From: Actinomycetaceae bacterium
GTDB lineage: Bacteria; Actinomycetota; Actinomycetes; Actinomycetales; Actinomycetaceae
NCBI GenBank assembly: GCA_028724905.1
Contig: JAQYTG010000017.1
Coordinates: 26,963 to 90,962 of the forward strand
Direction of reading: 5' to 3'
Length of the DNA stretch: 64,000 nucleotides
Below the pieces are notes generated by a model, which was not told the origin of the DNA, ran no database searches, and was given only the letters and a program-made list of their open reading frames with translations. Positions 46,261-47,944 of this stretch are shown one piece after another; position 1 is the first letter of the stretch, and each line of letters begins with the position of its first letter. The position numbers and the translations under genes are program-made.

Positions 46261-46487
46261 AGCAGGACGTGTAAAAAATTTGCGATTTTTTTTACACGTT
46301 AAAGTGATATGTAAAAACTCTTTACACATAAATATGGAGACCGGAGTGGTTCTGGACAGCCGTGAGTAATTCCAAACAGCCGTGAGTAATTCCAAACTAC
46401 CTTGAGTAATTCCAAACTACCTTGAGTAATTCCGAGCAGCCTTGGACGCAGCATCAGCTACCCACAAATTCGGCGATTTTCGATCTC
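46261..46487. repeat. Long direct repeat, copy 1 (227 bp; palindromes plus four 20-bp units)
   Basis: Matches 47699-47944. Arms acgtgtaaaaaa (46267-46278) / ttttttacacgt (46288-46299); 20-bp units at 46357-46436. Confidence 0.97.
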
Positions 46488-46590
46488 GAAGCCCGTCTAC
46501 GTGGTACGTGGTTGATAACTACATCAGCTTAAAAACTCTCCCCCGAGTGGCTAACTGACAGCATCGCCCCAACTCTAGTGCTTTGATCAC

Positions 46591-47682
46591 CTACTGCGGG
46601 AGCCGCGTATCAAAAAGTAGAGATAGATACTTTTTATTAATGAAAAGCACACTTCTACCTGCTTTGGTGGGTTCCACTACCCCAAGCTGAGCAAGTTTCT
46701 GGACGTATTTACTTGCAGTCGGGCGGCTCACCCCGAGATGCTCCATAACGTCATCATACCTCAGATACGGTTTTTCAAACAGGATATAAGCAAAGTCCCG
46801 AGCCGGTAATCCCTCTTTGTGCAAAATGCTCACGGTCGCGTCGATCTGTTCACGAATTGAATACACCAGATTACTAGTCCATGTAGACGTCACCCTCACG
46901 GCATCTAGCATGAATAGCACCCACGGCTCCCACTCATCCCTTTGCGTCACGCCACCAAGCAGACGATAATACTCATCCTTATGCGCAACGATATACCCAG
47001 ACAGGTAAGTGATCGGCCGCTCCAAAAGCCCCTCTTGCACGAGATACAACACATTCAAAATACGCCCAGTACGCCCATTCCCATCCGAAAACGGGTGAAT
47101 CGCCTCAAATTGATAGTGAAGCAGAGCAAGTTTGATCAGCGGATCCATTGAATCGTCCTCATTGAGGAACGTCTCCCACTGAGCCAGATGGCCGAGAATC
47201 ACATCTCTATTTTCAGGCGGCGTATAAATGCGCGCTTTAGTGACGGGATTTCCGATATACGTACCCGCTTCACTGCGCACATCCATAGTGATTCCCGTGA
47301 TGATGGAACACACCAATTTAGCGGTATTAGTAGTGAGGGGCTTTTGCTGAATCGTCTCGTATCCGGCATACATTGCCCTACTATATTGCAATGCTTCTTT
47401 TGTGGCCGGCGAAGGAGACTGCACGTTGTGTGCCGCGCGAAATAACTCATCGTTTGTGGTGACGACATTTTCAATCTCGCTAGACGCCTGAGCTTCCAAT
47501 AATGGCACTGCTTGAATCAATATGTGCGGATTGGGCAGCAAATTCGCAGCTATGTTTGCACCCTCTAATGCGCGCGCAGCCCTAATCGTAGCTTTTAGCA
47601 CAGGTACCGTTTCGATATTTTGCGCTGGCGGCAATGGTGGAAGATGCTGATAAGGCACTTCCGGATCGTTATGCATATCCAT
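46591..47682 (-). CDS. Fic family protein, SoFic-like (N-terminal inhibitory helix, Fic core, C-terminal winged HTH)
   Basis: HPFSDGNGRTGR catalytic motif, SSEIEN (S/T)xxxE(G/N) inhibitory motif and LGVSRPTASKY HTH. The real start may be ATG 47676. Confidence 0.93.
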   Translation of the reverse strand: MDMHNDPEVPYQHLPPLPPAQNIETVPVLKATIRAARALEGANIAANLLPNPHILIQAVPLLEAQASSEIENVVTTNDELFRAAHNVQSPSPATKEALQYSRAMYAGYETIQQKPLTTNTAKLVCSIITGITMDVRSEAGTYIGNPVTKARIYTPPENRDVILGHLAQWETFLNEDDSMDPLIKLALLHYQFEAIHPFSDGNGRTGRILNVLYLVQEGLLERPITYLSGYIVAHKDEYYRLLGGVTQRDEWEPWVLFMLDAVRVTSTWTSNLVYSIREQIDATVSILHKEGLPARDFAYILFEKPYLRYDDVMEHLGVSRPTASKYVQKLAQLGVVEPTKAGRSVLFINKKYLSLLFDTRLPQ

Positions 47683-47698
47683 ATAGTAACCTCACAAC

Positions 47699-47944
47699 AG
47701 CAGGACGTGTAAAAAATTTGCGATTTTTTTACACGTTAAAATGATATGTAAAAACTCTTTACACATAAATATGGAGACCGGAGTGGTTCTGGACAGCCGT
47801 GAGTAATTCCAAACAGCCGTGAGTAATTCCAAACTACCTTGGGTAATTCCGAGCAGCCTTGCGTAATTCCGAGTAGCCTTGAGTAATTCCGAGCAGCCTT
47901 GGACGCAGCATCAGCTACCCACAAATTCGGCGATTTTCGATCTC
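47699..47944. repeat. Long direct repeat, copy 2 (246 bp; palindromes plus five 20-bp units)
   Basis: Matches 46261-46487 with one extra 20-bp unit, T7 instead of T8 and a few substitutions. Units at 47794-47893. Confidence 0.97.

Follow-up and report, generated by a model that had tools for sequence, protein, structure and literature searches.

Here, we describe a gene for a SoFic-type Fic protein that is bracketed by two long direct repeats in a 64,000-nucleotide stretch of the draft genome of an Actinomycetaceae bacterium (GenBank assembly GCA_028724905.1, contig JAQYTG010000017.1, positions 26,963 to 90,962). We refer to this whole stretch as the window and give all coordinates as positions in it. 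The original prediction on this DNA had placed a SoFic-like gene at 46591-47682 between direct repeats at 46261-46487 and 47699-47944, about 210 bp from a tRNA-Arg(CCT) gene, and had read the arrangement as an excisable or amplifiable cassette. These placements are borne out: the gene product has the Fic_N, Fic and SoFic-like_C domains, the repeats are 90-92% identical, and the tRNA gene lies at 48154-48229 on the minus strand, 210 bp from the second copy. The layout that had been proposed for each repeat, i.e., palindrome 1, a TGTAAA-N5-TTTACA palindrome, a 20-bp array and a common tail, is likewise found in the sequence. We arrive at a different interpretation, in which the repeats would carry operators of the Fic protein itself.

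The Fic gene and the two repeats

By sequence, the product of the gene (46591..47682, minus strand; 363 residues) is a SoFic-type class II Fic enzyme. Its Pfam domains are, in order, Fic_N (E = 7e-21), Fic (8e-16) and SoFic-like_C, the C-terminal winged helix (8e-14). Chains of solved SoFic structures match residues 7-356, i.e., nearly the full length, with E about 1e-103, and the PADLOC model of the single-gene SoFic defence system matches at 3e-105. The catalytic motif HPFx(D/E)GNGRxxR is present in the translation as HPFSDGNGRTGR, and the N-terminal inhibitory motif (S/T)xxxE(G/N) as SSEIEN. The protein misses the cut-off of the NCBIfam equivalog NF046030 (435 vs. 550 bits), and we regard it as a predicted member of the family rather than a certified equivalog. 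The 380-residue PDB chain 7xux matches in the Fic core only (E = 5e-9). EF-Tu and FtsZ are among the cellular targets that homologues AMPylate; SoFic-type enzymes are widespread anti-phage toxins and work as a single-gene abortive-infection system. An anti-phage role of the window's Fic is predicted from its match to the PADLOC SoFic model.

The upstream repeat (47699..47944, minus strand; copy 2 of the original prediction) comprises the putative promoter/operator region of the Fic gene, a six-unit array of 20-bp tandem repeats and a 44-bp tail; the downstream repeat (46261..46487, minus strand; copy 1) comprises a module with the same two palindromes, a five-unit array and an identical 44-bp tail. 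In the direction of the gene, the tail comes first and is followed by the array, palindrome 2, palindrome 1, 16 nt and the annotated ATG of Fic. After the Fic stop codon, the tail of the downstream copy follows at 103 bp and its module at 266 bp. In the upstream copy, palindrome 1 occupies 47705..47736 (ACGTGTAAAAAA..TTTTTTACACGT), with half-sites ~20-22 bp apart from centre to centre, palindrome 2 (TGTAAA-N5-TTTACA, 11 bp from centre to centre) occupies 47747..47763, the array spans 47775..47901 and the tail 47901-47944. The corresponding elements of the downstream copy are palindrome 1 at 46267..46299, with one A more than its upstream counterpart, palindrome 2 (also TGTAAA-N5-TTTACA) at 46310..46326, the array at 46338..46444 and the tail at 46444-46487. 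Along their whole length, the 227-bp and 246-bp copies are 90% identical; resolved into repeat families, they consist of a 171-nt family with 92% gapless identity and the 20-bp unit family in five and six copies. The palindromes fold with z about -4.

The repeats are composite. No more than these two copies exist in the genome (2.06 Mb, 23 contigs, 92.6% complete), and a profile of the conserved core, run genome-wide, recovered the same two sites and no other operator sites. The idea that one such element precedes each accessory gene of an array fails in this genome on the same count. When 60 relatives were searched, matches were confined to the ~65 bp at the start of the repeat, in which both palindromes lie, so that the full element is found only twice in its own genome and relatives match only in its core. 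What is conserved elsewhere is, thus, the gene-proximal ~60 bp; array and tail are confined to this genome, in which the duplication is a longer one (227/246 bp) that takes in the variable 20-bp array and the tail. In the upstream copy, the array counts six units in this genome and five in that of a second strain (assembly GCA_034177145.1), while the downstream arrays are identical between the assemblies. Unrelated 19-20-bp tandem repeats abut the operator in two relatives (G140, 3.3 units; G006, 2 units). The arrays may be products of slippage beside palindromes or binding sites of another factor. As for plasmid-type iterons, no Rep-type family was found among the nine neighbouring open reading frames scanned; no dedicated search for Rep genes was made. 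The 44-bp tail contains GAAAATCGCCGAATTTG, which is similar to the middle of palindrome 1 as found elsewhere (AAAAATCGGCGAATTTTT) and may be what is left of a third palindrome; three palindromes are present in some relatives (G142, G196 and Yaniella).

The conserved core as a putative operator

The core block of ~60 bp consists of two palindromes made from four TGTAAA half-sites, and it is found just upstream of SoFic homologues in Actinomycetota and Bacteroidota. Within a module, all four half-sites have a common core, which is (C/T)(A/G)TGTAAA(A/G) here. The palindrome-1 pattern was matched in 16 of the 338 genomes of the family, with 0 control matches, and is paired at a distance of 1.2-1.4 kb in six of the 16. 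A strict pattern for both palindromes together was matched by 24 stretches of the genome collection, including Varibaculum, Boudabousia, Micrococcaceae, Corynebacterium, several Bacteroidota and a metagenome-assembled genome of Arcanobacterium, the genus of the window. In many of the matched stretches, a Fic homologue (40-81% identity) begins 20-40 bp past palindrome 1, and several of the Micrococcaceae, Corynebacterium and Bacteroidota matches have a homologue of ~40-49% identity directly downstream. At this locus and in its relatives, the palindromes lie 16-35 bp ahead of the start codon. The architecture, i.e., a short-spaced palindrome, a spacer of ~10 nt and a long-spaced palindrome whose end lies 20-35 bp ahead of the start codon, is kept even in family orthologues of ~50% identity and in homologues on alphaproteobacterial plasmids. 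One match (L006, on contig C192 of genome G005) was discarded as spurious and AT-rich. With its repeated TTATCCACA-like boxes, this stretch has the look of a replication origin of low GC content in a genome that is assigned to a high-GC genus, and it may stem from contamination of the bin.

In distant orthologues, all four half-sites are altered together, to TGTAC(C/T), TGTCGA or TGTTCA, and the start of the recognition helix in the winged helix tracks the half-site. SRPTA goes with TGTAAA in Actinomycetota and Bacteroidota, QRQTA with TGTCGA, and QRAAA or QRQAA with TGTACC/T. The same is seen on a small scale in two congeners, in which the Fic orthologues are each ~67-68% identical to the window's protein: G191 (L088) combines SRPTA with TGTAAA, whereas G196 (L089) combines SRQTA with TGTACA, and the half-site difference is present in both the upstream and the downstream copy. 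Judged by these sequences, the pair represents a natural specificity switch. Because the four half-sites change in the same way across clades, one protein is predicted to read both palindromes. Clades are non-independent samples, and we take the covariation as a strong lead toward an operator, not as proof of one. A constraint from structured RNA or a hairpin was considered and rejected, since all four half-sites change alike across clades; no known RNA family besides the tRNA was found. A dif/Xer-like site, considered because of the likeness of the half-site to the XerD arm, was also rejected: the arms face the wrong way relative to the dif consensus, and the sequence tracks the Fic clade.

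Based on the position of the core upstream of SoFic homologues and on the covariation of half-site and recognition helix, the core is most likely the operator of the Fic protein's own C-terminal winged helix. Work on related proteins is consistent with this idea. [quoted passage not shown] On straight DNA, the spacing of 20-22 bp in palindrome 1 would correspond to about 68-75 Å and would fit a CccR-like dimer. We suggest that Fic dimers bind both palindromes, with half-sites 11 bp apart in one and about 20-22 bp apart in the other, and in that way would hold expression of the toxic enzyme low.

The putative promoter fits into this arrangement. The gene-proximal arm of palindrome 1 contains a putative -35 box, TTTACA (47713-47708, minus strand), and a putative -10 box, TACTAT, follows at 47688-47683 (minus strand), 6 nt before the second ATG of the gene (47676-47674); both boxes are assigned from sequence only. 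In most of the loci for which sequence was printed, TTTACA is followed 17-19 bp on by a TANNNT-like hexamer and 6-7 nt later by an ATG. This geometry probably reflects a leaderless transcript. The gene-proximal arm of palindrome 1 would, then, double as the -35 box of a probably leaderless promoter.

The downstream copy and recombination between the repeats

Close Fic orthologues (E at most 1e-50) are present in 35 of the 338 family genomes and in 17 of 40 genera, always as one copy per genome. The original prediction had proposed a comparison for 0, 1 or multiple Fic units; no genome has more than one (0/35). In 17 of 30 Actinomycetaceae loci, the upstream module recurs as a direct repeat that starts 9-266 bp past the stop codon. 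The TGTAAA class accounts for 11 of these 17 bracketed loci, including ten of the twelve loci nearest the window's gene, and other half-site classes for six, with repeats of 50-135 bp and 87-98% identity. Enteractinococcus has the same operator-Fic-operator layout. Among metagenomic SoFic loci, an upstream/downstream repeat was found in 1 of 66 usable loci, and that repeat is without the operator palindrome; the difference from 17 of 30 is significant (Fisher p = 6e-10), the search settings being slightly different in the two sets. The bracket is absent in Salmonella plasmids, and an Agrobacterium vitis plasmid carries a diverged, half-site-intact operator-like palindrome 19-50 bp past the stop codon. 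The bracket as a universal feature of SoFic was therefore rejected: it is common in Actinomycetaceae and not a general family trait. A plasmid of Francisella philomiragia (L119) has a 72-bp direct repeat (90%) with a ATTATCCG..CGGATAAT palindrome ahead of two adjacent Fic-family genes; this repeat is an upstream region common to the two genes and not a bracket.

The differences between the copies are unevenly placed. Across eleven upstream/downstream pairs, which are not fully independent, the copies differ at 7 of 341 half-site positions and at 47 of 330 other internal positions (Fisher p = 2e-9; p = 7e-7 once three near-duplicate genomes are dropped). The half-sites of either copy are conserved, and it is the loops and spacers that drift. 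This pattern suggests that selection acts on the protein-contact positions of both copies. We suggest that the downstream copy is a second operator that is kept intact by selection. It would probably be an auxiliary site that either takes part in DNA looping or, as a roadblock, shields Fic from the genes around it.

The copies also change in concert. Of 61 columns, a mean of 4.9 differ within a genome and about 15 between genomes, and there are cross-similarities between genomes; for instance, the downstream copy of G139 is closest to the upstream copy of G140. From the within-genome similarity together with the cross-similarities between related genomes, we infer that the two copies of a genome exchange sequence, i.e., undergo gene conversion.

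Larger events are visible in Varibaculum, in which the interval from an MmeI-type restriction gene to a decarboxylase gene is syntenic and variable in content. Depending on the genome, it holds operator-Fic-operator; half an operator, RelB/ParE and a full operator; DUF6290/ParE and then an operator; or AbiEi/AbiEii, an operator and then DUF4862. The RelB/ParE insertion starts exactly between palindrome 2 and palindrome 1, and in another genome the duplication takes in the module and about 50 bp more. Because the syntenic site has occupied and replaced variants, recombination at these repeats is judged to have occurred. The Fic-less Varibaculum genomes have no close Fic orthologue elsewhere in the genome. 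Their lone operators look like relics, since they are conserved about as much as their flanks. Lone modules are also present in Glutamicibacter, Arthrobacter and Corynebacterium, and Fic orthologue loci lie in unrelated contexts, even inside one genus. Irregular repeat extents, together with a site that follows the Fic clade, speak for homologous exchange rather than a dedicated site-specific system. We suggest that operators in direct repeat undergo homologous exchange, which would result in gene conversion and in the occasional loss or replacement of the gene with a lone operator left behind. As a locality, the Varibaculum interval (L047-L054; genomes G348-G355 and G026) is a hotspot of defence and toxin-antitoxin genes in which RelB/ParE, DUF6290/ParE, AbiEi/AbiEii, DUF4862 and SoFic units are interchangeable; its decarboxylase gene is of the pyridoxal phosphate-dependent type, and in G355 a fragment of the 3' end of the MmeI gene is duplicated inside the array.

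Altogether, we favour a model whereby operator-Fic-operator is a self-regulated unit with twin operators, in which the second copy is auxiliary and the repeats recombine, and we estimate its probability at about 0.6. The anatomy, the conservation, the covariation, the frequency of the bracket and the Varibaculum variants are read directly from sequence; binding by the protein, the promoter and a role for the downstream copy are predicted from them. Several observations weigh against the model. The downstream copy is missing in 13 of the 30 family loci, including that of the closest relative (G006), and in about 65 of the 66 metagenomic SoFic loci; the family as a whole can thus do without a second operator. 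Lone operators persist without a gene and are no better conserved than their flanks (87-94% vs. 81-92%). The 20-bp arrays and the tail are not accounted for by an operator, and the likeness of the copies within a genome, which includes the loops, could reflect recent duplication or gene conversion instead of function.

The last point leads to the possibility that the downstream copy is a functionless by-product of tandem duplication, or of single-crossover insertion of a circular operator-Fic molecule, and owes its likeness to gene conversion. The constant direct orientation of the copies, the lineage-specific extents of the repeats (227 bp here), the loops common within a genome, the near absence of the bracket outside Actinomycetota in the metagenome sample and the bare locus of G006 are all in keeping with such an origin. 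We nonetheless consider it unlikely: the differences avoid the half-sites about seven-fold, which is unexpected if only the upstream copy is under selection, the palindrome of the Agrobacterium vitis plasmid has diverged with its half-sites intact, and the bracket recurs in 17 loci that represent several unrelated contexts and several half-site classes. Even less probable is a downstream copy that serves as the promoter/operator of a Fic-controlled gene beyond it, be it an AS1-like antitoxin or the 1515-residue surface protein described below. The precedent is a gene for a 47-residue antitoxin downstream of EcSofic in Escherichia coli (PMC12249575). Here, a -35/-10-like geometry behind copy 1 is followed by open frames of 12 and 24 codons, and in Varibaculum a second module lies 80 bp upstream of the decarboxylase gene. 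However, no conserved small frame follows the downstream copy in any of the 17 bracketed loci, on which ground a conserved small antitoxin was rejected, and the frame behind copy 1 has no family match. Moreover, the genes beyond the downstream copy vary by genome or are convergent, and the surface-protein gene starts 500 bp away with a promoter-like site of its own.

The cassette of the original prediction, with the repeats as recombination sites for excision or amplification by RecA or a recombinase acting in trans, near tRNA-Arg and as one unit of an array, has to be set against the same data, and we regard it as improbable. The repeats are direct, the unit occurs in unrelated contexts in different genomes, and lone modules are found in several genera. 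Varibaculum has an array-like hotspot in which RelB/ParE, DUF6290/ParE, AbiE, DUF4862 or Fic stands beside the module, and one RelB/ParE insertion sits precisely between the two palindromes. Palindrome 1 itself, with arms of 12-14 bp around a short spacer, is laid out like the core site of a tyrosine recombinase, which we treat as a lead only. Against this, neither a tyrosine nor a serine recombinase (PF00589, PF00239) is encoded on the whole 107-kb contig (C17); the original prediction had noted that the window lacks an integrase or transposase. The half-sites vary with the Fic clade, as the site of a host recombinase would not, and the repeats, with extents of anywhere between 33 and 227 bp, continue into unrelated flanks, which fits homologous events but not a fixed crossover. 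No tandem Fic copies are present in the 35 genomes, the tRNA gene has no attachment-site (att) duplicate in the window, and the element has only two copies in this genome. Finally, the second assembly has the same arrangement, and no alternative junction is present in it or in the contigs of other sequencing runs. What stands of the cassette is a discrete, horizontally moving unit, given the patchy orthologues, their unrelated contexts, the Varibaculum variants and the exchange between copies; what does not stand is a dedicated excision or amplification system. A version without recombinase, in which Fic dimers bound to both operators draw the direct repeats together, promote loop-out of a circular operator-Fic molecule that re-enters at a lone operator of another genome, and would in this way steer excision and capture of their own gene, strikes us as a long shot; there, lone operators and the operator-punctuated toxin-antitoxin hotspots may be the footprints. 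As for an assembly artefact, the genome is a 23-contig draft, yet the chance of one is close to nil. The two copies differ from each other, and the arrangement is reproduced, with about 99.6% identity and one array unit fewer, in GCA_034177145.1, an independent assembly of the species. Short contigs from other sequencing runs, including metagenome contigs, stop about 30 nt into the repeats or close to the tRNA gene; breaks inside the repeats are what real repeats are expected to cause and, therefore, also speak against an artefact.

The surroundings of the unit offer little that ties it to the tRNA gene. tRNA-Arg(CCT) (48154..48229, minus strand) is a neighbour and a synteny breakpoint and is not shown to be part of the unit. 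No duplicate of its 25-nt 3' end was found in the window with up to 3 mismatches allowed, and in the congener G006 the Fic gene lies 67 kb from the tRNA-Arg gene; the proposed link to the tRNA 3' end is not supported. A tRNA-targeted island was rejected on the basis of the missing att duplicate in the window and the missing integrase on the contig. The side of the tRNA gene with NlpC-P60 and DtxR is conserved in the genus, and the Fic side is non-syntenic in five congeners. The block from 33000 to 48150 on the Fic side, which contains an ATP-binding cassette importer, a GH95 enzyme, the 1515-residue RibLong/TSP3 surface protein and Fic, has no counterpart beside tRNA-Arg in these five congeners. 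Between the downstream copy and the surface-protein gene lies an A/C-rich spacer of 500 bp (45763..46260) with no recognisable gene or remnant. The toxin remnant that had been proposed directly behind copy 1 is not supported: read through stops, the sequence has no Pfam match, and it has no similarity to Fic. Next to the tRNA gene, the region 48026-48137 contains 23-bp tandem repeats and, twice, a motif of ~35 bp (GGAATCCTC..CCAGAGAGA..ACGC), one occurrence of which abuts the 3' end of tRNA-Arg; the second strain and one metagenome contig have an extra copy of ~71 bp in this region.

Relation to known systems and meaning

As far as its sequence tells, the core is a known kind of thing, i.e., the autoregulatory operator of a Fic protein with a helix-turn-helix domain. 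CccR of Yersinia pseudotuberculosis (PMC9755527) shares its domain plan with the window's Fic, with the inhibitory helix at the N terminus, the Fic core, and the DNA-binding domain at the C terminus; sequence similarity between the two is weak, if PDB chain 7xux is CccR. Unlike the window's Fic, CccR is a type VI secretion effector. Its operator is a 10-bp inverted repeat spaced 26 bp, whereas here four TGTAAA half-sites form two palindromes, and a second operator copy behind the gene, as proposed here, is not described for CccR (PMC9755527). The window's protein is a full-length homologue of SoFic of Shewanella oneidensis (PDB 3EQX/9TCH), for which neither a base-level operator nor a downstream operator is reported (bioRxiv 10.64898/2026.07.09.737422). 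EcSofic/AS1 of E. coli (PMC12249575) is similar in that a regulatory element lies just downstream of a SoFic-type toxin; there, the element is a gene for a 47-residue protein, whereas here it would be a second operator copy, with no conserved small frame. Altogether, the twin-operator layout, the apparent selection and the recombination footprints are not described in the CccR and SoFic papers cited here.

Two further comparisons concern the arrangement rather than the protein. Like the Varibaculum hotspot, integrons punctuate single-gene or toxin-antitoxin cassettes with a structured imperfect palindrome, attC. Unlike with integron cassettes, no integrase is present, the element is without the attC layout, the site co-varies with its cargo protein, the extents are irregular, and this genome holds two copies only. 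The lac (O1/O2) and gal (OE/OI) systems repress by DNA looping between a main operator at the promoter and another site for the same repressor inside the gene or past it. The second site here differs in being a full direct duplicate 1.2-1.4 kb away, and looping between the sites is a proposal.

Self-regulation of SoFic proteins is only beginning to be studied. The locus and its relatives provide a base-level model of the operator, with four half-sites at two spacings over a putative -35 box. They also provide a natural specificity series, in which a single Pro-to-Gln change in the recognition helix goes with A-to-C in the half-site. No new recombination system is revealed, and the cassette idea survives weakly: direct repeats can and do recombine, but not as a dedicated excision or amplification system tied to a tRNA gene. 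In many actinobacterial loci, a second operator that appears to be selectively maintained stands behind the gene. With this layout, Fic genes would, therefore, readily disappear from defence islands or be exchanged for other genes there, and lone operators would be what remains.

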